DNA from: an uncultured virus (IMG/VR IMGVR_UViG_3300021197_000608)
Lineage: Duplodnaviria; Heunggongvirae; Uroviricota; Caudoviricetes
Direction: 5' to 3' (one strand)
Length of the DNA: 20,000 bases
Virus record (IMG/VR): IMGVR_UViG_3300021197_000608
Below, piece by piece: positions 2 to 18,944 of the stretch. Within the stretch, counting starts at the first letter, position 1, and each line of letters opens with the position of its first letter. Below the pieces are notes generated by a model. That model was given only the letters and a program-made list of their open reading frames with translations, had not been told where the DNA came from and did not search any database. Position numbers and translations under genes: made by a program.

Positions 2-3000
2 CTCATCAACCTTAATTACAATAGCATATTCAGCATCGTCTTTAAGATACACTGGTGAGTCAAACTCAAAAGTTGTAGAAGAAGAAGCATCAGTTGAAAC
101 ATTAATCTCTTCTGGTTTCAGAACTTTTTGTGCAAGTACTTTGTTTGATGGGTGTCCATCGACAGTATCAGTTAACTGAACATATACAGGTCGTGTACCA
201 GCAGTTTGGAAGAACAAGTCAACTTTAGTAACGAATGCACCTTCTTCACCTTGGTTAATAAATGTCTGTGCAAGTGGATCATGACCCCTACCTCTAGGCG
301 GAGGCGGAGGCGGTGGATCAGCAACAAACGAACTTGCAATTTGTCTACTAGATGTATTAACACCACCACGAAGTTCTCTACTAACAGTTCTTTCTCTTTG
401 AACTCTATCACGAACAAACTCTGCTTTTCTTACATTAAGAATTGTTTGTTCTCTCTCTTCTGCGATACCAGTTGCAGAATAAATTCTTTCTGCAGCTGAT
501 GTAAACGCACCAGTTGTTTTTTCGTTATTGACATTATCAATAAGTCTGAATACTCTTTCACCAGTTCTGAAGCGAAGTGCATCTGTATTTGGAAGATAGA
601 AAACTCCACTAAATTGACCAATAGAATTAGTTACTAGATTGGAAGAGTTTGTAAATACTGATGGGTTGGTTGTTGTTGAGGTGCCACCATTAATTTCTGT
701 AATAGTAACTTGGTTAACCCCACCACCATTTACACTTTTTCTACTTACTGTACCAGTACAAACATCACTTATGGCAAATCCATTGATTATGTTTGTTGCG
801 TATACTTCTCTAACTGAAGTACTGCCTGGCCCTTCCATTGCAACGTGACAAGAAGCCTGAAGTCTTTGACAAGAACCACCAGATGAGTATGAACTAACAG
901 TACCCAACACACTACCATCAATATTTGTAATTGTAAAGGTATTTGCCGAAGTATTAACAGAAGTAACAAGATAATTATTTTGTAAAGAATTTCTAAAGTT
1001 CAATTGTGTTGAACCACTAATACTACTAAGTTGTACATGGTGTCCAGGCCGTATACCTGATACACTTGCAACGGTTATTGTTGCAACAGTCGTACTGTTT
1101 TTAACAACACCAGAAATATTAGTTGCAGTTTGAGTTTGGTTACGAATAATGTCACCATAGTTAAATGCATTTGCAAAATCATCTTCACCGTCTGTAAAAC
1201 GAGCAGAGTCAGTACTACCACTTGAGCCAGGCGATTGAATATCTTTAGGACTAAATCTAATGTTTGAACCATTGACTTTGAAAATATCAGCAGGACGAAC
1301 AAAGTTACTTACATCTTCATTATCAAAGAATGCATGAACTCTTGTTTTTGGTTTTAGGTTTCCTACATTTACAGATATTGGTCGAGAACGCATGAAAGGA
1401 ATCATAGAGATACTAGTAATTCTATCTCCAAGATTATTTGATTCTACTGTAGACTGCATAGTAGTTCTAATACCAGAACTAACTTGTCCTACTTGTTGTG
1501 AGAACACCTGTCTACTCTGAACTGTTTGTGTGGTTGTAAATTGTGTACCACCACGAACTCTTTGGGCTGAAGTATTATTTCTACGAGATAGAACTTCTGT
1601 TCTAGTTGGAACTCTACGTCCATACCAGTTATCCTGCCATGAATTCCATACTGTTCCTGTTACACCAGCTGCATCTGCAAGTTCACGAATAACATCAAAG
1701 TTATTATCATCATTCACAATTACGTCTGGGCGACGTTCAACATCATTCCAATCATCCGAATATGGAACTAAGAAAATCTCACCAGTAAATGGTGCAACCT
1801 TATATGGGTTTGTATCAAAACTATCTGAAGCAAATGGATTCTTGATATGTTCTTCTGATGTATATGGAAGAGTAACAATTCCGTCTGGATGCATTGTATA
1901 ATTTGCAGAAGATCTACTTGCATCACTGGTAACAGATTCAAGCAACTGTACATTATCAGTAAATGCCTTTGGACGAGCTTCACGTTCTGTCATGTCAACT
2001 GCGATATTGTAATCTTTATTCTGAATATCACCAATAATGTGTCCAGTAAAGTTGTCTACAACAAAACCATTCTTTAGTCTATCAAATCCAGCAGAGTCCT
2101 TAATTACCAGATCAGCAGTTTCTTTTTCTAGAAGGTTGAGTGAAGTGTAGTATTCTAGATTTGAAATTCTCTTATCTAACTTACCAATGTCACGCATTGT
2201 GTATCTACGATTATCAAGTTTAGTAACTTGAACTTCATTCAACGACACGACATATGGTTCATAAACCATTTCAAATAGAACCATTCCACTGTCTGGTTGT
2301 TGTGGTTTCTGTGGATCAAGAGCTGGTACACCTTGGATAATATCAAATCTTCCAAGTCTATCCATAAACATAATATCCATTCTTGCGAGGAAGAATGAGA
2401 AGTCTGCTTCCATGTTTGTACCGATAGCAGGAAGTTCTGAAACAACAGCAGTTGCATTTGTAAAGTTTGCACCAGTGTCATCAATACGAGGTCTAAAGTC
2501 GATACAGTCTCTTAGTTCAAAGAAACTACCATCACCGTTTGCAGATGTGTAAGTTGGAATATTAACATAGTCTACAACACCATCATAGGAGTCAACAGAA
2601 AAGTAATCACCAGCACCATGTGTAAAGAAATCGAATGTAACACGCAATGCACCAGTTGGAGCTGGTTGTCCTGGCTTTAGTTTAATTCTTGCGAGATCAT
2701 AGAATGCATCTCTTTGTCCACCATCAAAATCATATCTATCTGTGATATCAATTGCACCAGAAGTTGCATACGCACCAAATCCACTGGGTTGCATTGAAAC
2801 ACTTGTAAGTTTAAATCCATCTGCTTTTCCAAGTGTAACCTCTGTTGATTGTACTGAAGTTTGACCAGTGATATCAACTGTAGCAGCAGACTGAAGTGTT
2901 TTAGTTTTTTCTGTAGCGTCATTTGCAGATACACGAATAGATGCAATCAATGTAACGGTGTCACCATTTGCCAATACATTAGTAATACCAGCATTAAGTC

Positions 3001-4993
3001 CACTAAATGTTATTGTTCTATCCGAACCACTCAATCCCATTTTTGCACTGGTGATATCAACAATGTCTCCAGCTGAACGAGGACTTGCCCCTGTTGCAAC
3101 AACAAGAGTATAGTTTCTCAAGTCTGAAATAGGTCTGAATGTTTCATCTGAACCAGCAACTGTAAATGAAACTGAGTTTGTTGATACGGTTGCAGGCGCA
3201 AACTTTCGTCTTACTGTATATGCAGTAGACTTTTCATTGTCTGGATTTGAAGTGGAGTCACCACGAATTTTTCTAACTCTGAAAAAGTTTGTTGGGAATA
3301 CAAGTAACTTTTGATCTGGACGAACAAGTTCTGCTTTAAATCTTTTGATTGTACCACCAGAGACAGCAGCTGCACCATTAGCATCTAGTGTAATTGCTTG
3401 TTGTCCACCAATACTTGCGACAGAACCAATGAGTGTGTCGTTGAGGAAAATAACATCACCAGTTTCAACTTCTTGTAAGAATACTGTACCAACACCAGTA
3501 ATGGTAGTACTACCTGTTGTAGATGTTGCAGTACCAGTTAGTGATACGAGTGTAGGACTTATGTTTGCAGTAAAGGTTGAACCAACATTATCTACAGATT
3601 TCACATCTCTTTCAAAATCGAAACCAGCATTCATGTTGATATCGAAGAGTCCAAGTTTAAATTTCTTTGTCGCAAGTGTACCCTGATAGTCACCATCGTG
3701 TAGAATAAATGAACGAGCTCTTGCAGAACCAATCTGTGTATTCTGTCCTAAATCTTCATACAATCTGATAACTTCAAACTCATCAATCTCTGGTACACCA
3801 GACACAGCTGTTACGAGAACAAAATTACCGATTGGTGTTTGAATTGGTTTATCGTTAACACGACCAAATGTTCTTGGTTTATCAGTCTTGACAAACTGAG
3901 TTGTCATAGTTTCTAATTCATAACCTTCAACATATGCTTTGCCAGGCTCAACTGCGAATACTAATTTAGATTCCTCACCACCAGAAGCCTGAGTATAGAT
4001 ACCACGGTTTGTTCCATCGTTTAAATGTTCACGAGTTTCAGAAAGGAATGGACGAACTTCATAGTTACCACTTTCATCAAATGTTCTACGAGCAAGTGTA
4101 TGTTCCAACTCAGCATAGTCTGCATACTTTTTAAACTTTTCAACAGTACCCTGATTAACACGAGCAAGTTCGATGAAGTCTGTGTCATCAGTTGCAGTAA
4201 GAGTTTTCTTTGATAGGGTAAGGTTGATTTTAAATCTGTGAGCGCCTGGCGCATTTGTGTTTGATGTTCCAGTTGCATTATCTAGAAGAGATGAATCCTC
4301 TTCAGGTGAAACAAAACTTTCTGCAATAGTCCAACCAACTCTATAAGAAGGAGTTGAACTATACTTGTCTAAAAGTATAACCTGTTCTGAATTTTCTACA
4401 AAGAAACCATTGACAAAGTAAACACCTTTGTGTACAAGTATAGCAGAACCAGTTCCTACTGGGGCGTTTGTCGATTGAATATTTGCACCAAGTTCTGTTA
4501 TTTGATTTGTTGTTAGTAATGGGTTTAGTACAGTTGTATTATCAGCATTAGTTGAAAGAACAGTTTCACCAGATGCAAATGTTTTTGTCTCTCCATCTGT
4601 ACCACTATCTTCATACTTGAAATATATTGTTAAAGGATCATCACCAGAAGCTGCAACTGTACCAATTACTTTTGCTTTGACACCAGTTGTTTGTCCAGTA
4701 ATAATTTTGTTTTGAAAATCTGTTCTATAACCTTCAACATCTTGTGCATTGTAAATTGATTCAACTTTAAGATATTCATATTCCATGTCGATATTAATAT
4801 CGCCTGGAATTACCATAGAACCTTGTTCAAAAACATGTTCACCAAAGTTATTAAGTTGTCTTTGGATTATAGTTTGTAATTGTGTAAGTTCACGAGCCTG
4901 AATTGAAAAGCCAGGACGAAACATAACACGATGAAAGTTCTTGGTTGAATCAAAGTCATCATAGTATGGGTTTACGTTGAAGTTAGTAGCCAT
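2..4993 (-). CDS. Large virion structural protein, VrlC/DUF4815-like (3' end outside window, >=1664 aa)
   Basis: Not in the ORF track because no stop falls in the window. ATG at 4993 with AGGA upstream. N-terminus MATNFNVNPYYDDFDSTKNFHRVMFRPGFSIQARELTQLQTIIQRQ matches the 'PYYDDF...FRPG..QARELTQLQ' start of T4-like phage VrlC/DUF4815 proteins. The same frame at the left edge reads DPLAQTF...VTKVDLFF...FEFDSPVYLKDDAEYAIVIKVDE. Frame checked at both ends and several internal points, not at every codon. Confidence 0.88.
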   Translation of the reverse strand, partial: MATNFNVNPYYDDFDSTKNFHRVMFRPGFSIQARELTQLQTIIQRQLNNFGEHVFEQGSMVIPGDINIDMEYEYLKVESIYNAQDVEGYRTDFQNKIITGQTTGVKAKVIGTVAASGDDPLTIYFKYEDSGTDGETKTFASGETVLSTNADNTTVLNPLLTTNQITELGANIQSTNAPVGTGSAILVHKGVYFVNGFFVENSEQVILLDKYSSTPSYRVGWTIAESFVSPEEDSSLLDNATGTSNTNAPGAHRFKINLTLSKKTLTATDDTDFIELARVNQGTVEKFKKYADYAELEHTLARRTFDESGNYEVRPFLSETREHLNDGTNRGIYTQASGGEESKLVFAVEPGKAYVEGYELETMTTQFVKTDKPRTFGRVNDKPIQTPIGNFVLVTAVSGVPEIDEFEVIRLYEDLGQNTQIGSARARSFILHDGDYQGTLATKKFKLGLFDINMNAGFDFERDVKSVDNVGSTFTANISPTLVSLTGTATSTTGSTTITGVGTVFLQEVETGDVIFLNDTLIGSVASIGGQQAITLDANGAAAVSGGTIKRFKAELVRPDQKLLVFPTNFFRVRKIRGDSTSNPDNEKSTAYTVRRKFAPATVSTNSVSFTVAGSDETFRPISDLRNYTLVVATGASPRSAGDIVDITSAKMGLSGSDRTITFSGLNAGITNVLANGDTVTLIASIRVSANDATEKTKTLQSAATVDITGQTSVQSTEVTLGKADGFKLTSVSMQPSGFGAYATSGAIDITDRYDFDGGQRDAFYDLARIKLKPGQPAPTGALRVTFDFFTHGAGDYFSVDSYDGVVDYVNIPTYTSANGDGSFFELRDCIDFRPRIDDTGANFTNATAVVSELPAIGTNMEADFSFFLARMDIMFMDRLGRFDIIQGVPALDPQKPQQPDSGMVLFEMVYEPYVVSLNEVQVTKLDNRRYTMRDIGKLDKRISNLEYYTSLNLLEKETADLVIKDSAGFDRLKNGFVVDNFTGHIIGDIQNKDYNIAVDMTEREARPKAFTDNVQLLESVTSDASRSSANYTMHPDGIVTLPYTSEEHIKNPFASDSFDTNPYKVAPFTGEIFLVPYSDDWNDVERRPDVIVNDDNNFDVIRELADAAGVTGTVWNSWQDNWYGRRVPTRTEVLSRRNNTSAQRVRGGTQFTTTQTVQSRQVFSQQVGQVSSGIRTTMQSTVESNNLGDRITSISMIPFMRSRPISVNVGNLKPKTRVHAFFDNEDVSNFVRPADIFKVNGSNIRFSPKDIQSPGSSGSTDSARFTDGEDDFANAFNYGDIIRNQTQTATNISGVVKNSTTVATITVASVSGIRPGHHVQLSSISGSTQLNFRNSLQNNYLVTSVNTSANTFTITNIDGSVLGTVSSYSSGGSCQRLQASCHVAMEGPGSTSVREVYATNIINGFAISDVCTGTVSRKSVNGGGVNQVTITEINGGTSTTTNPSVFTNSSNLVTNSIGQFSGVFYLPNTDALRFRTGERVFRLIDNVNNEKTTGAFTSAAERIYSATGIAEEREQTILNVRKAEFVRDRVQRERTVSRELRGGVNTSSRQIASSFVADPPPPPPPRGRGHDPLAQTFINQGEEGAFVTKVDLFFQTAGTRPVYVQLTDTVDGHPSNKVLAQKVLKPEEINVSTDASSSTTFEFDSPVYLKDDAEYAIVIKVDE

Positions 4994-8815: not shown

Positions 8816-8823
8816 TATTTATA
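8816..8823 (-). promoter_or_regulatory. T4-type late promoter TATAAATA (gp55-dependent)
   Basis: Exact TATAAATA on the minus strand, intergenic, 32 nt upstream of the gp9-like ATG. Confidence 0.8.
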
Positions 8824-8855: not shown

Positions 8856-8863
8856 TATTTATA
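8856..8863 (-). promoter_or_regulatory. Second T4-type late promoter TATAAATA
   Basis: Exact TATAAATA immediately after the gp7-like stop codon, 40 nt upstream of the other copy. Confidence 0.7.
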
Positions 8864-12308: not shown

Positions 12309-14258
12309 TCAATAACCAGAGGAGCTGGAAGAGTGACTATGAGAACCAGAACTTGAGGAACTTGAACTTGAAGAAGAAGAACTTGAAGTTGAAGAGATTG
12401 TTGTTCCACCACTTGCAGCACCACTTGTAGCTTTACCGAATGTACCAACCACAGTATGAGAACCAGGCGAAGGAGTACTTCCCTGTTGATCTGTCTGTGC
12501 AGTAATTCTTGAACCACCACTATCAATACTTAAAAGTTGGTTTCTTACTGGAACGATATCATTTGAATCTGGAATTGCAAAGAAGTGAATTGTACCATCA
12601 CCATTCATAGTAGATGTGATCTGTAAATCATTTACAGTAATTGTACCTGTAGTATAATTGATATCACCAGCGTTTGCATTTACATAAACTCTTGATTGTG
12701 CGACTACCTGATAAACTCTTACGATACCAGAACCATCATCATCAATGAAATGTGTTGCAGTAGAACCAGCGACAGTAAATCCTGTTGATGATATTACTGG
12801 TGGTTCATCATCATGTGGATGATAGATTGAATTATAAAATTTTATAACATATTGTTTCTTAGTATTAATCTGAGCTCTTTGTGATTTGTACATTCTAATA
12901 TTAGAAATGTTGCTAATGATAGAAGTGTCGGATGTGTCAATCAATCTAGATATTTCTGAGAAACGATACATACCGTCAAACTTTTCTAGATTATTATCAC
13001 TGTATTCTGAAATTGTATTTGCAACTATTGTTTCTAAGTCACCAGAACTCTTAGTAGTTGTTGTCGGATCATATCTAAAGTTTACATCCATGATGACGTA
13101 AATGTTTTCTGGATCAACAATAACTGGACGAACCGAAGCAATGTTATAAGATTTTAATTGAGAGACAATATTTTCTTTTTGAGCTTCAGTTAAGAATGTT
13201 CCTTGAAGTGGACTAATAGAAATATAAACCTGTCCGTAAACTGGAGGATCATTATCTTCTCCACCCCACACTTGGATAGTTTTAATGTTGGGATATATTG
13301 TAGGAAGAATTTGTTTATAATCAAATCCAGTGACAGCACGTTTCTGTGCAGTATAACTGAGAGGTGCATAGTACTTGATTGATTGAATTGTTTCTGCTTC
13401 ATCACCACCAGATGCAGATTGAATAGTAGACACCGCAACATTTGTTTGTCCATTGATAGATGTTACAGTAAATTGATTTGCACTATTAGCTAATGTTTTA
13501 TTTGTAACAACGTATTCCATAATAATAATGTTACCATCAGAAAGTTTCTTACCAATTACATCATCCCCAAAGTAAACTTCAAATCTACCGTCATCTGTTT
13601 CTTGTAGAAAGTATACTGGATCAGAACCAGTTGTGCCTATGATTTCACTTGCAAGTGCAAATGTTTCTAATGTAGTATCTGTGGCAGATTTCTGTACTGA
13701 CACTTTAAGTGTTGTCGTATCAGCTCTATCATTCGCCAATAAATATTTCTTTTCTGGATTGTTATAATCTACTGTGTACTTTGTTGTTGTGAGTGTACCT
13801 TCATAGATTGGAATGTTTGAAAAGATAAGAAGTCCGTTTGTAATTTGTGTTGTGATATCTTCATTAGTAACAAAACCATAAGTCGAGTTGTTTACTGAAG
13901 TTGAAAACTTTGTACCTTTAGGCATTGTCAAGTTTGACAACTGATTATTAGTTACAGTAATCTCTACTCTTGCAACTGGAGCTCTTGCAGAACGTGGAGT
14001 ATATCCCAAACTCTTTGCGTGTGATACAACTGAACCACGAGTTGTTGCACTATCCAAAAACATTTCATTTGTTGCGAAGTTAGCATTCATTGCAAGATAG
14101 TGAGTATTGTATGCAAGTAAGTCGATGATAGTTGAAAGTCCAGAACCTTCAAAGTTATAATCAGAAAAGTCTGATTGACCTTTCATGTATGTTTTTAAAT
14201 TATTTTTTATTGCATCGAAATCTAATTCGGTAACATTAACTTCTGATTTACTTGACAT
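12309..14258 (-). CDS. gp6: Baseplate wedge subunit gp6 (649 aa)
   Basis: LDFDAIKNNLKTY...FSDYNFEGSGLS...LLAYNTHY...NEMFLDSA..RGSVVSHAKSLGYTPRS, FEVYFGDDVIGK, and Q.RAVT..DY motifs. Confidence 0.95.
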   Translation of the reverse strand: MSSKSEVNVTELDFDAIKNNLKTYMKGQSDFSDYNFEGSGLSTIIDLLAYNTHYLAMNANFATNEMFLDSATTRGSVVSHAKSLGYTPRSARAPVARVEITVTNNQLSNLTMPKGTKFSTSVNNSTYGFVTNEDITTQITNGLLIFSNIPIYEGTLTTTKYTVDYNNPEKKYLLANDRADTTTLKVSVQKSATDTTLETFALASEIIGTTGSDPVYFLQETDDGRFEVYFGDDVIGKKLSDGNIIIMEYVVTNKTLANSANQFTVTSINGQTNVAVSTIQSASGGDEAETIQSIKYYAPLSYTAQKRAVTGFDYKQILPTIYPNIKTIQVWGGEDNDPPVYGQVYISISPLQGTFLTEAQKENIVSQLKSYNIASVRPVIVDPENIYVIMDVNFRYDPTTTTKSSGDLETIVANTISEYSDNNLEKFDGMYRFSEISRLIDTSDTSIISNISNIRMYKSQRAQINTKKQYVIKFYNSIYHPHDDEPPVISSTGFTVAGSTATHFIDDDGSGIVRVYQVVAQSRVYVNANAGDINYTTGTITVNDLQITSTMNGDGTIHFFAIPDSNDIVPVRNQLLSIDSGGSRITAQTDQQGSTPSPGSHTVVGTFGKATSGAASGGTTISSTSSSSSSSSSSSSSGSHSHSSSSSGY

Positions 14259-14719: not shown

Positions 14720-14727
14720 TATTTATA
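14720..14727 (-). promoter_or_regulatory. T4-type late promoter TATAAATA
   Basis: Exact match 17 nt upstream of the gp25 ATG. Confidence 0.82.
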
Positions 14728-14733
14728 ACGAAA

Positions 14734-15135
14734 TTACAAAACGACTAGAGCTCTATTCTTTATATGTTCTTCTTCTATGTCATCTTTTGACTGTCCATGA
14801 TATGCAACAGCATGATGTTCTGATATCATCTTATCATTAAGAATACTTCCATCAGTCAATTTAAATTGACCGAGTATCCTACCATATTTACCCTTCCCAT
14901 CCTTGACAGTCACAAGAGTCTGGTTAGAACCTACAGGCATATGTGCCTTAACATATTCCTTTGCAGCTGTTCCATACTTCTTTTCTTCCAAGTCTCTCGT
15001 TCTAGATTCTGGTGTATCAATACCATAAAAACGTATACGTTGTTTTCTCAACCATACACCAAACCCCAAGTCAATGTCAACATCTGTTGTGTCACCATCA
15101 ACCACTCTTAATATCTTACAATTATATTCGTACAT
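14734..15135 (-). CDS. Staphylococcal nuclease (thermonuclease)-like protein (133 aa)
   Basis: MYEYNCKILRVVDGDT...RIRFYGIDTPE...GKYGRILG carries the SNase DGDT, GIDTPE and YGR motifs. The real start is likely 15135 (GGAGG just upstream, 1 nt after the PAAR stop), not 15216. Confidence 0.85.
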   Translation of the reverse strand: MYEYNCKILRVVDGDTTDVDIDLGFGVWLRKQRIRFYGIDTPESRTRDLEEKKYGTAAKEYVKAHMPVGSNQTLVTVKDGKGKYGRILGQFKLTDGSILNDKMISEHHAVAYHGQSKDDIEEEHIKNRALVVL

Positions 15136-15136
15136 C

Positions 15137-15433
15137 TTATCCTCCAGCGAATACGTTAGACGAACCAGAGTTGGATGCATTAGGCACCCATGAACCGTGG
15201 CCACCTGTTGCGTCACCTTTTCGATGAACGCCTATACCATTTACAAATACGGTTGAACTTCCAGCTGTTGCTGGATCTCCGCATGATGTTGTGTCTCCAA
15301 TCCTAACAGTCGCTGCACCATTTGTAAATACATTTGGTGAACCAGCTGCGTATGCGGTTTGGTGAAATGGATTAGGTGTAGGACTTGCGTGTCCTACATG
15401 ATTATCTAATCCAACTCTTGTTACTTCAGGCAT
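15137..15433 (-). CDS. gp5.4: PAAR-repeat spike tip protein, T4 gp5.4-like (98 aa)
   Basis: Three R.GD-type repeats (TRVGLD, VRIGD, HRKGD), GSPNVFTNG/GSSTVFVNG/GSSNVF, His/Cys metal ligands; directly downstream of gp5. Confidence 0.93.
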   Translation of the reverse strand: MPEVTRVGLDNHVGHASPTPNPFHQTAYAAGSPNVFTNGAATVRIGDTTSCGDPATAGSSTVFVNGIGVHRKGDATGGHGSWVPNASNSGSSNVFAGG

Positions 15434-15441
15434 AATTATTC

Positions 15442-17232
15442 CTATGCGTATATCTGATAGAACTTACCGTACTCTTTATATCTTCTATGATTATAAAAAG
15501 TTGCAATATCAAATCTATTACCAGACGGTTTAAGTGAAATGTGTAACCAAGGATTACCAGAACCACCAGTTTGATATTCTAGTAAGAATTGATCGTGTGG
15601 TACATTTTCACGAACCCACAATGCAATATCATAATACTCTGATCTTGATGCGCCACTAAATTGCATATCAGCAGCCATTCCTCTTTCATGCTGAGATGAA
15701 CCTTTTGCTGGGCGGAAACCAGAAGTGATAAACATATTTGGGTATTGGTCTTTTATTGGATCAAGAACATTAGTTGCCAAGTTCTTGAGATTATTTATTA
15801 TATCCTCTAGAGTTAAACCGTGTTGTTCTTTTATCTTATGTCCGAACACCGCATTCTTTGATACGTCACCCACCTTATAATGTTTTGATATCTGTAGACT
15901 ATAATCAACAGTCTGTTCCGTAAGTGTAACCTGATCAACAGCTCCTACTGATTGATTACCAGCCTCTACAGATGCTATGTTTGGATTTTCTCCTGTTTCT
16001 GCACCGTGTTCTGTAATGTCATCTGGAACATTTGGTTCTGCAATTAATCTTCTTGACGCACTTTCTGTATTATATCTACCCTCAAGCGCATTGAAAGAAT
16101 AATCAGAGAATGATGTCGGTAGATATTTTCCAGCAGCAACCGCAGCTTTGATTTCATCTTCACTCTTCTCAACATCATCGTCACCCATGAACTCACCTTC
16201 ATCTGGCAATTCTATTCTTGCTTTCTCATCAAGGACTATTGCCTCTGGTGGTTCAGTAATATCTTCACCTTCTTCATATGTTGGAAACCCACGAGAGTCT
16301 TTGAACTCAATGTCTGGAGCAGCTATCACCGCAGCTGCAGCTCTGCCCGCTTTGTTAAAGTCTATGGTAGAACCAACCAAGTCCATTGCACTAGTAGATG
16401 TAATGTTCATTGTAGTACCAGCATTGATATCCATAATTGTAGAAGTGATAAGATTAATATCATCACCAAACATATAGACACCATGTCCATCACCAACAAT
16501 ATCCAAGTTTCCTTTAATGTTTGTTTTGTAATCCCCATCCACATTGATAGTAAAGTTTGCCTGTGTCTGTAGTTTTATATCTGCAACAGCTGTTGCGGTA
16601 ATGTTTTGTTGTGAAGTAATCTCTGTAGACTCATTTGAATACATACGAATATTTTTGCCCGCATGGAACGTAATGTTTCTTCCGACATTCCAAGTCATGT
16701 CCTCATCTACTTGTCCATTGACAGAACCACGAACATAAAGATTAGTATTGCCGTCAACATATAAATCTACATTACCACGAACACGAACCTTTTTGTTCTT
16801 GTGAACGACTTCATAGTCCTCACCAATAATCTTAGTAACCTTTGTTCCGTCAGGATGAACTTCATAGAACGTACCAGAACGATGATACTCATGTATCCGT
16901 TCATGGCCAGGCGTATCATCAAACTCTTGAATGTGACCAGACTCAGTTTCCCTTACATGGTTGAATGGATACTGTGCATTGAATGGAGTCTTTGGCTCAC
17001 CTGTCAAATCATCCACACGTTTCTTTTTGAAATCTACTACTGGATGTTGTTTAGCTAAATCATTTACCGCAAGTCTGTTTGTGTCTACCTCATTTACCCT
17101 ACGAGGATAATAAGAGCGAGGATCACCAAACCCATTAAGAGTCTGTTGCGTTGAAACTGTTACTTCAACTTCCGTACCTTCTCTTGGTGGTTCATCGAAT
17201 ATGATTTTGTTATCTTCAATTTTATATGACAT
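15442..17232 (-). CDS. gp5: gp5 C-terminal part: beta-helix needle plus C-terminal M15A-type (Peptidase_M15_3) zinc peptidase (596 aa)
   Basis: GFGDP..YYPRR...DTN.L linker, YPFNHVRETESGHIQEFDDTPGHER..H.SGTFYEVHPDG, 8-residue V.G(N/D) repeats ending in GSTIDFN (T4 gp5 ends GSRIDIG), then a ~303-aa extension with ITSGFR...SQHERGMAAD...WLHIS. GAGGT Shine-Dalgarno 6 nt before the ATG. Confidence 0.9.
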   Translation of the reverse strand: MSYKIEDNKIIFDEPPREGTEVEVTVSTQQTLNGFGDPRSYYPRRVNEVDTNRLAVNDLAKQHPVVDFKKKRVDDLTGEPKTPFNAQYPFNHVRETESGHIQEFDDTPGHERIHEYHRSGTFYEVHPDGTKVTKIIGEDYEVVHKNKKVRVRGNVDLYVDGNTNLYVRGSVNGQVDEDMTWNVGRNITFHAGKNIRMYSNESTEITSQQNITATAVADIKLQTQANFTINVDGDYKTNIKGNLDIVGDGHGVYMFGDDINLITSTIMDINAGTTMNITSTSAMDLVGSTIDFNKAGRAAAAVIAAPDIEFKDSRGFPTYEEGEDITEPPEAIVLDEKARIELPDEGEFMGDDDVEKSEDEIKAAVAAGKYLPTSFSDYSFNALEGRYNTESASRRLIAEPNVPDDITEHGAETGENPNIASVEAGNQSVGAVDQVTLTEQTVDYSLQISKHYKVGDVSKNAVFGHKIKEQHGLTLEDIINNLKNLATNVLDPIKDQYPNMFITSGFRPAKGSSQHERGMAADMQFSGASRSEYYDIALWVRENVPHDQFLLEYQTGGSGNPWLHISLKPSGNRFDIATFYNHRRYKEYGKFYQIYA

Positions 17233-18302
17233 TATGATACCTCTGTGTTAATCCCTTTTTCCTCTGCGTATTCCTTAATACTTTGAGAACCATTCTTTAG
17301 GGAAGTAGGTGGGCCTTTTGTAAACTCAGATGGATAGAAGTGTCCAACATCATTTGGAATATCATTCTTTAATTTAAATTGTCCTAATGCTGCAACTGCA
17401 AGTGAAGTATAGTTGTCACCACTTGTTCCTGTGTCATACTTTCCGTTTGGTAAATAGATAAGAAGATCTATTGCACATCCGTAATTGTGCCATGAAGAAC
17501 CAGGCCGTGCAGCTCTGTTTTTTGTTCTACCAGATTTATAATCGTTGTAAAGTTTTCTTTGTTCTGACATAGACCTGTATCCGTATCCGATACTTGCATC
17601 ATAGTCTGGATTATCTTCAATGAACTTTTTGATACCATTCGCCCATCTATCACGCAACCAAGGAACAAGACTGTTCAGTGCTTTTGCTGTTCTGTTGCCA
17701 TATCTCGATCTACCGAAGTCATCCCCTGTATATGTTTGACCACCAGAAAACTCTGGTGCTTGTGCTTCTGTATTGATTGGTGATTCTGATGGTCTGTTTT
17801 CTGCTACATCTGATTCGCCATCTTTTGTTACGAGAACAGTTGAGTCCATAGTTCCAATTGGTGTTGTGAATTCTGTAGTGTTACCATCTGCAATAAAAGA
17901 AGTTGTCTGAACTTGTGCAGCTGGTTTTTGTTGATCGTCAGAGTAATCAAATGGAGCTCCACCTTGTGGTGCAGCGGAAGCATTAATCTTGCCTGGCAAT
18001 GTTCCGAATACCATTGGTTCTTGCATGAAGTCTGGATCACGCCAGAAACCAATCACCCATGTACCTTCAATCGGCCCAGTAGGTGACATACCAATACCAC
18101 CAGATGATGCAGAGTTCGCTGGTTGAATACAAAACGCCCAAGGCAAATCACCAGTAGGAAGTTTTGTTTTATCTTCTGTGTGATATCCGAATACACGAAC
18201 ACGAACTCTACCTAGTGCCTGTGGGTCGCCTCTATCTTCTACGACACCAATCCACCAGATAAACCCATCACGCCCAGCAAAATAAGAAAGATTTTGTTCC
18301 AT
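17232..18302 (-). CDS. gp5: gp5 N-terminal part: OB-fold hub plus M15B/C-type zinc peptidase (356 aa)
   Basis: F.WWIGVVEDR.DP..LGRVRVRVFGYH...LPT.DLPWA...GIG.SPTG.IEGTWVIGF..D...QEP..FGT is the gp5 OB-fold. GYRS..EQ..LY...A.PG.SWHNYG.AID...DVGHF matches VanY / L-Ala-D-Glu peptidase-type motifs. Confidence 0.9.
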   Translation of the reverse strand: MEQNLSYFAGRDGFIWWIGVVEDRGDPQALGRVRVRVFGYHTEDKTKLPTGDLPWAFCIQPANSASSGGIGMSPTGPIEGTWVIGFWRDPDFMQEPMVFGTLPGKINASAAPQGGAPFDYSDDQQKPAAQVQTTSFIADGNTTEFTTPIGTMDSTVLVTKDGESDVAENRPSESPINTEAQAPEFSGGQTYTGDDFGRSRYGNRTAKALNSLVPWLRDRWANGIKKFIEDNPDYDASIGYGYRSMSEQRKLYNDYKSGRTKNRAARPGSSWHNYGCAIDLLIYLPNGKYDTGTSGDNYTSLAVAALGQFKLKNDIPNDVGHFYPSEFTKGPPTSLKNGSQSIKEYAEEKGINTEVS

Positions 18303-18319: not shown

Positions 18320-18327
18320 TATTTATA
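18320..18327 (-). promoter_or_regulatory. T4-type late promoter TATAAATA
   Basis: Exact match 17 nt upstream of the gp5-N ATG. Confidence 0.82.
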
Positions 18328-18442: not shown

Positions 18443-18820
18443 ATGAAACATATAATACTTGCTGCAACATTGGTTGCAGGCACATCAGCTATGGCCGAGG
18501 ATGGACTTTCTTGGGGTGGCGAATTAGATACAAAATACAAAGTTGATGCAGAAACATTAACTATGTCATTAGAACCAGACGTAACATACACATGGGGTTC
18601 ATCTGCTTTAACAGTAGGTATGGACATTCCAGTATGGAACTCTACTTCTGCTGATAGTTTTGTATTACTAGATGCATTGGATGCTGGTAAACAGCCTGAT
18701 CTAGATATGGAAGTTACTCATCAGTTACGAGACAACCTAGAGTTGTCAGTAGGAACTGCATGGGATTTAAACAGACAAGCACGAGAAGACGTTACACTAG
18801 GTGTTACTTTCTCATTCTAA
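18443..18820 (+). CDS. Small exported outer-membrane beta-barrel-like protein (125 aa)
   Basis: Signal peptide MKHIILAATLVAGTSAMA (A-X-A), alternating amphipathic strands, C-terminal beta-signal VTLGVTFSF. AAGGA Shine-Dalgarno upstream and a terminator downstream. Confidence 0.75.
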   Translation: MKHIILAATLVAGTSAMAEDGLSWGGELDTKYKVDAETLTMSLEPDVTYTWGSSALTVGMDIPVWNSTSADSFVLLDALDAGKQPDLDMEVTHQLRDNLELSVGTAWDLNRQAREDVTLGVTFSF

Positions 18821-18867: not shown

Positions 18868-18944
18868 TGGTCGGAGATGCTGGATTTGAACCAACGACCC
18901 CTTGTTCCCAAAACAAGTGCGCTACCAGACTGCGCTAATCTCCG
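18868..18944 (-). tRNA. tRNA-Pro (anticodon TGG), CCA encoded
   Basis: Reverse complement CGGAGATTAGCGCAGTCTGGTAGCGCACTTGTTTTGGGAACAAGGGGTCGTTGGTTCAAATCCAGCATCTCCGACCA: acceptor CGGAGAT/ATCTCCG, D-arm GCGC/GCGC, anticodon stem CTTGT/ACAAG with loop TT-TGG-GA, T-loop TTCAAAT; 77 nt. Confidence 0.97.

Follow-up and report, generated by a model that had tools for sequence, protein, structure and literature searches.

A 20,000-nucleotide stretch of DNA from an uncultured tailed virus (IMG/VR record IMGVR_UViG_3300021197_000608; Caudoviricetes), referred to here as a whole as the window, carries two overlapping open reading frames (ORFs) that together encode the OB fold and the beta-helix needle of a T4 gp5-type tail spike. 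Chain 1 (ORF A) and chain 2 (ORF B) each end in a zinc peptidase domain of the M15 type, and neither contains a lysozyme. In textbooks gp5 is the "tail lysozyme", and the way contractile tails breach the wall is usually modelled on its one-gene form, which is cleaved and bears a glycosidase. We consider it likely that the two genes specify the central spike (i.e., the gp5 equivalent) of a marine myophage of the T4-like kind, a relative of phage Melnitz, that they are translationally coupled, and that this spike opens the wall with two M15 peptidases and no glycosidase, in the manner proposed below. Both ORFs matched phrog_430 ("baseplate hub subunit and tail lysozyme"), ORF A over profile positions 14-155 (E 8.7e-44) and ORF B over positions 315-544 (E 4.6e-59). 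The spike genes and their neighbours in this part of the window all lie on the minus strand, where the junction between the two ORFs reads TAATG (CATTA on the plus strand), so that a single A is shared by the TAA stop codon of ORF A and the ATG of ORF B. An earlier reading of the letters alone (hereafter the sequence-only reading) had described this overlap and a GAGGT Shine-Dalgarno sequence belonging to chain 2, and was correct on both, coordinates included (Table 1). Relatives carry purine-rich equivalents (AAGGGA, AAGGAG) at the position of GAGGT, and initiation of chain 2 is probably coupled to translation of chain 1.

Chain 1 begins with the gp5 OB fold. Pfam Gp5_OB matched residues 43-174 with 63.2 bits (cut-off 25), and phmmer searches matched 9f4a, the spike of a Klebsiella phage (E 4e-21), and T4 gp5 (1pdl; E 4e-18), the latter with residues 14-107 aligned to T4 gp5 8-105. 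The linker that follows (aa 108-200) matched no family. The remainder of the chain is a VanY/M15C-type peptidase domain, which matched Pfam VanY over residues 233-280 with 31.3 bits (cut-off 25). When the C-terminal 162 residues were searched with phmmer, they matched the endolysins Ply500 (2vo9; 5.6e-7) and LysB4 (6akv; 6.5e-6), and the motifs GYRSxxEQxxLY, SxHNYGxAxDL and DxxHF line up between these enzymes and chain 1. The zinc-ligand pattern of the family (H-x6-D...H with D/E-x-x-H) is present as S270-x-H272-x-x-G-x-A-x-D279...D318-x-x-H321, and H272, D279, D318 and H321, to which we assign the roles given in the family literature, are invariant among 21 aligned chain 1 homologues (52-89% identity). 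An AlphaFold2 (AF2) model of chain 1 had a mean predicted local distance difference test score (pLDDT) of 56.6 overall, and within the peptidase domain most 10-residue blocks averaged 75-94, with a dip to 53-63 at residues 241-280. Foldseek placed this domain in the hedgehog/DD-peptidase fold, with LysB4 (1.7e-4) and Ply500 (2.2e-4) as top matches, both at probability 1.00; Serratia ChiX, LysECD7, VanX, LdcB and the RB49 L-alanoyl-D-glutamate peptidase came next. The sequence-only reading had proposed an M15B/C-type peptidase at this end, an assignment that holds given the Pfam match above cut-off and the L-Ala-D-Glu endopeptidases at the top of the fold search. No NCBIfam model came near its cut-off, and as the LdcB and VanXY models scored far below theirs, the chain 1 enzyme belongs to neither equivalog. 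By analogy with its closest structures, it may cleave the L-Ala-D-Glu bond.

Chain 2 resumes gp5 where chain 1 leaves off. Its residues 30-54 (LNGFGDPRSYYPRRVNEVDTNRL; GFGDP..YPRR..DTN) aligned weakly and locally with T4 gp5 109-132, a linker motif that T4 has within its N-terminal domain region, and matched positions 75-109 of the Gp5_OB profile with 19.4 bits, below the cut-off. Within this motif, G34, F35, D37, P38, P43, T51 and N52 are invariant among 28 chain 2 sequences. As a guess, residues 135-175 of chain 1 and 1-29 of chain 2 may form a shared small beta unit. The needle itself is well supported: residues 77-165 aligned strongly with T4 gp5 376-464, and residues 76-186 with 9f4a 376-486 (domain E about 1e-15 to 1e-19), in agreement with the phrog_430 match. 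The needle would be a trimer; Pfam Gp5_trimer_C (20.8 bits, cut-off 30.9) and DUF2345 both matched below their cut-offs. The length of the helix segment in relatives is mostly 224, 240, 256 or 272 residues (i.e., in steps of 16), which points to gain or loss of entire repeat pairs. Because the alignment to T4 stops at residue 132 in the linker and resumes at 376 in the helix, T4 gp5 133-375, which we take to contain its lysozyme domain, is matched by just 22 residues. No lysozyme family of Pfam or PHROGs matched either ORF, and the GH24 lysozyme that lies between OB fold and helix in T4 gp5 has no counterpart here. The sequence-only reading had called the lysozyme absent, and these data bear it out; the protein is thus a gp5 homologue and not a "tail lysozyme". 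After the helix comes an acidic tether, 140 residues long in the window and 98-181 in relatives, for which no family match was found (aa 301-440).

The C-terminal domain of chain 2 has the fold of an M15A-type zinc peptidase. Its AF2 model (pLDDT 86.1; predicted template modelling score 0.84) was compared with 48,161 PDB representatives using VIA-align, a search independent of Foldseek, which ranked 1lbu first (Z 11.7, root-mean-square deviation 3.3 A, 130 residues aligned), followed by hedgehog N-domains (Z 6.9). Foldseek likewise recovered 1lbu (probability 0.99; best TM-score (TMq) 0.48). This structure, the Streptomyces albus G zinc D-Ala-D-Ala carboxypeptidase, is the type enzyme of M15A. 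All 28 chain 2 family members matched Pfam Peptidase_M15_3 weakly (best E 3.7e-4), and hhalign against 21 canonical gp5 C-terminal Peptidase_M15_3 domains gave a probability of 95.5% (E 1.5e-8) with the H/D/H residues aligned. The domain also matched phrog_894 (endolysin; 3.4e-14). Across the 28 sequences (26-84% identity), R507, H515, D522 and H564 do not vary and E552 is kept in at least 90%, and the H..D..H zinc set aligns both with the canonical domains and with Sonic hedgehog. A profile of the domain searched against PDB sequences gave weak Sonic hedgehog matches (E 0.09-0.4) and one unrelated match; the former are suggestive of a LAS fold and are no evidence on their own. An M15A-type domain at this end had likewise been predicted from the letters, and the gap between 1lbu and the next fold matches supports it even though the Pfam match is sub-threshold. 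The M15 fold is therefore present in both peptidase domains, with invariant H/D/H residues in each.

We found that the division into two genes is kept across relatives. Among 80 IMG/VR loci retrieved via chain 1 (52-98% identity to the window), 73 have the split junction, i.e., 73 of the 74 in which the junction region is readable. In six others the chain 1 frame leaves the contig (one of them, L075, resembles the unsplit, enzyme-less type), and in L073 the frame stops prematurely, 67 nt short of the end of the contig. The junction is TAATG in 56 loci, ATGA in nine, TAA and ATG separated by 1 nt in four, and TAA-GAA-ATG in frame in four. Because many of these loci are closely related, the 73 junctions do not represent 73 independent events. 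All four genomes of the cultured Methylophilales phage Melnitz have two overlapping coding sequences annotated at this place. A junction indel that fuses the ORFs, or close relatives that all have one fused gene, either of which the sequence-only reading had named as refuting it, were not encountered: positions 17230-17234 are spanned with 0 gaps by contigs of three DNA runs, each from a different study, and no fused form with the VanY part was present among 64 longer homologues (624-2000 aa; maximum query coverage 56%). Of 21 near-length matches to the VanY part, 18 are proteins of 348-356 aa, all 18 with Gp5_OB in precomputed Pfam annotation. Two shorter proteins, P0077 (203 aa) and P0067 (260 aa), were considered as stand-alone peptidases and are interpreted as chain 1 genes whose calls are truncated. 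One 218-nt metatranscriptome contig spans the junction without differences; as DNA carry-over is possible, it is no proof of expression.

These relatives also bear on whether the split is real. That one fused gp5 is made after all, by programmed frameshifting or stop-codon read-through, is very improbable. Recoding is known in phage tail genes, and read-through would join the chains in the four TAA-GAA-ATG loci (L020, L022, L024 and L026), where both lie in one frame. Across the four junction types, however, every possible frame of chain 2 with respect to chain 1 occurs. No single recoding mechanism fits this, and it speaks against a conserved frameshift or read-through and in favour of separate initiation. 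In the close relatives of the window the chain 2 frame is open for just 9 nt before its ATG, no slippery heptamer was seen in the last codons of ORF A, and the start codon of chain 2, its N-terminus (MSY/MAY-x-IE) and its purine-rich Shine-Dalgarno sequence are all conserved. Nor can the split credibly be put down to faulty assembly or sequencing, or to a gene decaying in a single contig, even though the window is metagenomic and one relative (L021, counted among the 56 TAATG loci) has an in-frame TAG inside chain 1 at 2828-2830: the split recurs in 73 IMG/VR loci from many samples and in four Melnitz genomes, the contigs of three studies show no indel, and both ORFs are under constraint, with mean column identities of 71% (chain 1) and 47% (chain 2) in their alignments and invariant catalytic residues. 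A quick OB-domain tree (90 rows, 120 columns; support from the Shimodaira-Hasegawa-like approximate likelihood ratio test only; the careful search is unfinished) grouped the split VanY-type proteins (30 rows, support 92) and a second, VgrG3-type set of split proteins (9 rows, support 86) each together and not as sisters, which would allow either a single origin with re-fusion or two origins.

The second split family comprises ten more distant IMG/VR loci (L074 and L076-L084) that are divided at the same topological place. Here the C-terminal part of chain 1 is a lysozyme of the T6SS_VgrG3-like_C type (five loci scanned, 178-189 bits), and chain 2 (735-781 aa) carries before the linker motif an additional N/S/T-rich N-terminal extension of about 190 aa that belongs to no family. 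No cultured phage of the collection has a split chain combining the OB fold with a VgrG3-like domain, in that no record covered at least 80% of the query. One-chain relatives have yet other enzymes at the same internal slot, i.e., after the OB core and before the GFxDP motif: GH19 in BUCT-ZZ01 (939 aa) and Phage_lysozyme2 in Cr30 (701 aa). The T4 lysozyme, in contrast, sits after the linker motif. The sequence-only reading had stated that both peptidases lie away from the lysozyme site; this stands relative to T4, but in relatives glycosidases occupy the very slot of the chain 1 peptidase (Cr30, BUCT-ZZ01 and the VgrG3-type loci). A further candidate, Pelagibacter phage Mosig, was considered as a separated chain 1 and proved to have a minimal unsplit gp5 (an OB fold and a short helix, without an enzyme).

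The C-terminal domain of chain 2 is widespread. It also ends the one-chain gp5 proteins of pf16, Cr30 and BUCT-ZZ01, and in many metagenomic gp5 proteins without a lysozyme (636-880 aa) this place is taken by a canonical Peptidase_M15_3 domain (41-68 bits). In Pseudomonas phage Milchi (L085 4125-5129) and Vibrio phage 1.244.A (L086 3459-4448), the same M15A-like domain is fused to PAAR, next to minimal gp5 genes without an enzyme; the Milchi protein is annotated as an "endolysin". A profile search over 1.84 billion representatives recovered 5502 relatives (cluster representatives) at E <= 0.001, 385 of them at <= 1e-30. In the best 150 of the 5502, the domain is essentially always C-terminal, and ad hoc hidden Markov models made in this analysis classed these 150 as OB plus helix (52), helix without OB (43), PAAR (11), OB only (2) and unclassified (42). 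The class of helix without OB is split-like, although some of its members may be truncated gene calls. Finding the same domain at the end of one-chain gp5 and of PAAR proteins fits a cargo borne at the tip.

Together, these data suggest the following mechanism. The OB fold of chain 1 would dock on the hub, with its M15C peptidase held on a flexible linker of about 90 residues. The chains would assemble 3:3, the N-terminal motif of chain 2 gripping the OB trimer of chain 1, and the downstream PAAR protein would cap the needle tip. Upon sheath contraction, the needle would carry the M15A domains on their acidic tethers through the outer membrane into the periplasm first, and the L-Ala-D-Glu-type peptidase of chain 1 would follow with the hub; from the order of the domains we infer that one enzyme stays hub-side and the other travels with the needle. 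Both enzymes would cut peptide stems or cross-links of peptidoglycan, and analogy suggests that they differ in bond specificity, opening the wall locally for the tail tube. The gene split would in this way yield genetically the same two-piece state that T4 obtains by cleaving gp5.

Several observations weigh against this interpretation. The chain 2 domain of the window scored 15.5 bits against Peptidase_M15_3, short of the cut-off of 23.2, and the OB and linker parts of the chain 1 AF2 model are unreliable (pLDDT <50) and were not used. The contact between the chains is inferred, the substrate bonds are guesses from the nearest structures, and the PAAR cap and three C-terminal extensions must both be accommodated at the helix tip. 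In the literature as far as it was accessible, no virion proteomics, structure or enzyme assay of the window phage or of Melnitz was found, and the available passages of the Melnitz paper treat the baseplate only in general terms and do not mention gp5, a peptidase or PAAR.

Two other explanations accept the domains and dispute what they do. In one, the M15A-like domain is not delivered by the needle, and is instead cut off in maturation or serves mainly in assembly or as the lysis enzyme. We regard this as unlikely. Some trimeric fibres and spikes lose a C-terminal intramolecular chaperone by cleavage in maturation, T4 gp5 is itself cleaved, and the domain does follow a trimeric beta-helix and a long, disordered-looking tether; its nearest PHROGs family, moreover, is the one named "endolysin", and small stand-alone viral M15A proteins share its fold. 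In 28 divergent sequences, however, the zinc ligands and the residue likely to act as general base are invariant or nearly so, which a folding aid would not require. The fusion of the same domain to PAAR tip proteins elsewhere points to a tip location in the virion. Among the best 150 of the 5502 relatives, moreover, 95 have a gp5 linker or helix, 2 have OB only and 11 have PAAR. In the other explanation, one or both peptidase domains are catalytically inactive modules that bind the wall or have a structural role, which is quite unlikely. Hedgehog N-domains share the fold without acting as peptidases, and chain 2 has S566 where canonical Peptidase_M15_3 has an Asp after the last His, but both families conserve the H-x6-D...H set, the upstream Arg and the acidic residue before the last His, and the structures nearest to chain 1, with 25-30% identity, belong to active L-Ala-D-Glu endolysins.

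Several known systems are close to this spike. Like T4 gp5/gp5.4 (1k28, 1pdl), it has the OB fold, the GFxDP..YPRR..DTN linker, the beta-helix start ETESGHIQEFDDTPG and an adjoining PAAR gene, and its predicted end state, (OB+enzyme)3 plus (needle)3, resembles the gp5* and gp5C into which T4 gp5 is matured by cleavage. Unlike T4 gp5, it is made from two ORFs with a conserved stop/start and not from one cleaved polypeptide; the break precedes the linker motif, whereas in T4 it follows the enzyme; and in place of a GH24 lysozyme it has an enzyme slot upstream of the linker motif and a second enzyme after the helix. The nearest cultured relative, Melnitz (genes 154/155; MZ577095-98), shares the two-gene build with overlapping stop and start (56% and 48% identity) and the neighbour order of PAAR-sized ORF, nuclease, gp25 and gp6, but its chain 2 is 667 aa long, with a longer helix and tether; its annotation calls the two genes just "OB domain protein" and "baseplate hub subunit/tail lysozyme". 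The chain 1 enzyme resembles the VanY/M15C endopeptidases (Ply500, LysB4, ChiX (5opz) and the T5 and RB49 endolysins) in its aligned motifs and top fold matches, yet those are free endolysins or secreted enzymes and this one is the C-terminus of an OB-fold spike protein. The chain 2 domain shares with 1lbu and Peptidase_M15_3 the fold, the H..D..H set and homology to the canonical gp5-tail domains, and differs in its 15% identity, its score below the Pfam cut-off and a Ser for Asp two residues past the last His.

The spike also parallels the evolved VgrG and PAAR effectors of type VI secretion systems (T6SSs), among which VgrG3 of Vibrio cholerae is an evolved VgrG effector. In both, a gp5/VgrG-type spike bears a peptidoglycan-degrading domain after the beta-helix or on PAAR, and the two are linked by the T6SS_VgrG3-like_C domain in relatives of chain 1 and by the chain 2 domain on PAAR in Milchi and 1.244.A. 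The window spike differs in being, as judged from its sequence, a putative phage virion component, without a gp27-like VgrG N-terminus and without an immunity gene. No gp27/VgrG N-terminal family was found in the ORFs (Phage_base_V reached just 15.8 bits, below its cut-off), and given this and the phage baseplate neighbours, the spike resembles an evolved VgrG in its working and is not a member of that group. Another contractile-tail baseplate centre that bears two distinct domains for wall degradation, of which one is a peptidase, is the hub protein gp15 of Anabaena myophage A-1(L), for which dual hydrolytic activities in vitro are reported (PMC10966104); as described there, the domains are on a gp27-like hub and not on the spike, they pair a glucanase with a peptidase, and there is no gene split.

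Table 1 Features of the two-gene spike locus (window positions; aa, residues of the encoded chain)
Feature	Position	Strand	Basis
T4-late-promoter-like octamer TATAAATA	18320..18327	-	17 nt upstream of ORF A start codon
Chain 1 gene (ORF A, 356 aa)	17232..18302	-	ORF list; stop codon 17232-17234
gp5 OB-fold domain, aa 1-107	17982..18302	-	Pfam Gp5_OB 63.2 bits
Low-complexity linker, aa 108-200	17703..17981	-	51% P/G/S/T/N/Q; AF2 pLDDT mostly <50
VanY/M15C-type zinc peptidase domain, aa 201-356	17235..17702	-	Pfam VanY; H272, D279, D318, H321
GAGGT Shine-Dalgarno for chain 2, within the end of ORF A	17239..17243	-	6 nt upstream of ATG
TAATG stop/start overlap	17230..17234	-	CATTA on plus strand
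Chain 2 gene (ORF B, 596 aa)	15442..17232	-	ORF list; stop codon 15442-15444
N-terminus (aa 1-29), gp5 linker motif (aa 30-54) and 22-aa bridge	17005..17232	-	Weak T4 gp5 alignment
Triple-stranded beta-helix needle, aa 77-300	16333..17004	-	phmmer to T4 gp5 and 9f4a
Acidic tether, aa 301-440	15913..16332	-	Composition, 24% D/E
M15A-type zinc peptidase domain, aa 441-596	15445..15912	-	AF2 fold, hhalign; R507, H515, D522, E552, H564
PAAR tip protein (98 aa), next gene downstream of chain 2	15137..15433	-	Pfam PAAR_motif 42.6 bits

The surroundings of the spike genes are those of a phage baseplate cluster. Downstream and on the same strand follow PAAR, an SNase-type nuclease, gp25, gp6 and more baseplate genes. 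The PAAR gene adjoins chain 2 and encodes a putative gp5.4-like partner. Among related loci, 59 have room for a PAAR gene past chain 2, and 33 of these have a PAAR homologue there within 400 nt. The octamer TATAAATA, presumably the T4 late-promoter consensus, occurs four times in the window (18320-18327, 14720-14727, 8856-8863 and 8816-8823), always on the minus strand (i.e., the gene strand) and in short intergenic gaps directly upstream of ORF A, gp25 and a gp9/10-like gene; its count by itself is not significant (1.65 expected; at least four in 13 of 200 shuffles). The SNase-type gene between PAAR and gp25 (14734-15216, minus strand; Pfam SNase 46 bits; phrog_452 endonuclease) likely starts at ATG 15135, directly past the PAAR stop, and not at the listed GTG. 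Most relatives keep the PAAR-SNase-gp25 arrangement, as does Melnitz, where the product is called a "nuclease-like protein". The gp6-like baseplate wedge protein (12309-14258, minus strand) has a long serine run at its end (...SSSSSSSSSSSSSSGSHSHSSSSSGY). At the window edge, an open 1664-aa ORF (2-4993, minus strand; DUF4815, 184 bits) probably encodes a large baseplate or fibre protein. Directly upstream of the spike operon is a tRNA-Pro (TGG) gene (18868-18944, minus strand), where Melnitz has tRNA-Leu and tRNA-Arg. Also on this side, a 125-aa ORF on the opposite strand (18443-18820, plus) has a signal-peptide-like N-terminus (MKHIILAATLVAGTSAMA) and no family match; a 62-aa ORF on the minus strand overlaps part of it.

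Wall hydrolases associated with the tail are already known, as are gp5, PAAR, evolved VgrG effectors and a hub with two hydrolases, and names derived from UniProt in BFVD already tag such proteins as "Peptidase M15A, C-terminal". No paper was found on a two-gene gp5, on a lysozyme-less spike armed with two peptidases or on phage PAAR-M15 fusions, in a search that left most subscription journals outside its reach; the two-gene, doubly peptidase-armed spike thus appears to be undescribed so far.

Taken further, and more doubtfully, the split and the exchangeable enzymes may have one common explanation. Phage spikes might be modular cargo carriers like those of T6SSs, with one slot inside the chain, behind the OB fold, and another at the tip, on the needle C-terminus or on PAAR, through both of which wall-degrading cassettes are swapped. 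The two-gene gp5 would then be a selected, heritable stand-in for the maturation cleavage of T4, freeing the needle and its tip enzyme from the hub-bound enzyme in the periplasm and easing cassette exchange; in this lineage a peptidase pair would act in place of glycan cleavage, perhaps adapting the phages to the cell walls of OM43 and other small marine hosts. We hold this wider proposal only tentatively.

For the two-gene, two-peptidase spike itself, the implications are more direct. An abundant marine phage group, one member of which was cultured on the OM43 clade, would use two genes and two peptidases for breaching the wall, and the routine mis-annotation "tail lysozyme" can be corrected. 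The two enzymes would be compact, naturally tethered peptidases targeting Gram-negative walls, and become available for enzymology. The tip-borne M15A-like module is very common, on the needle or on PAAR, and draws a direct parallel between phage spikes and the effector-loaded spikes of T6SSs. The relevant passages of the pelagimyophage paper (PMC7029224) describe gp5 clusters as very divergent and offer no explanation; the modular split design would account for this marked divergence of marine myophage "gp5".

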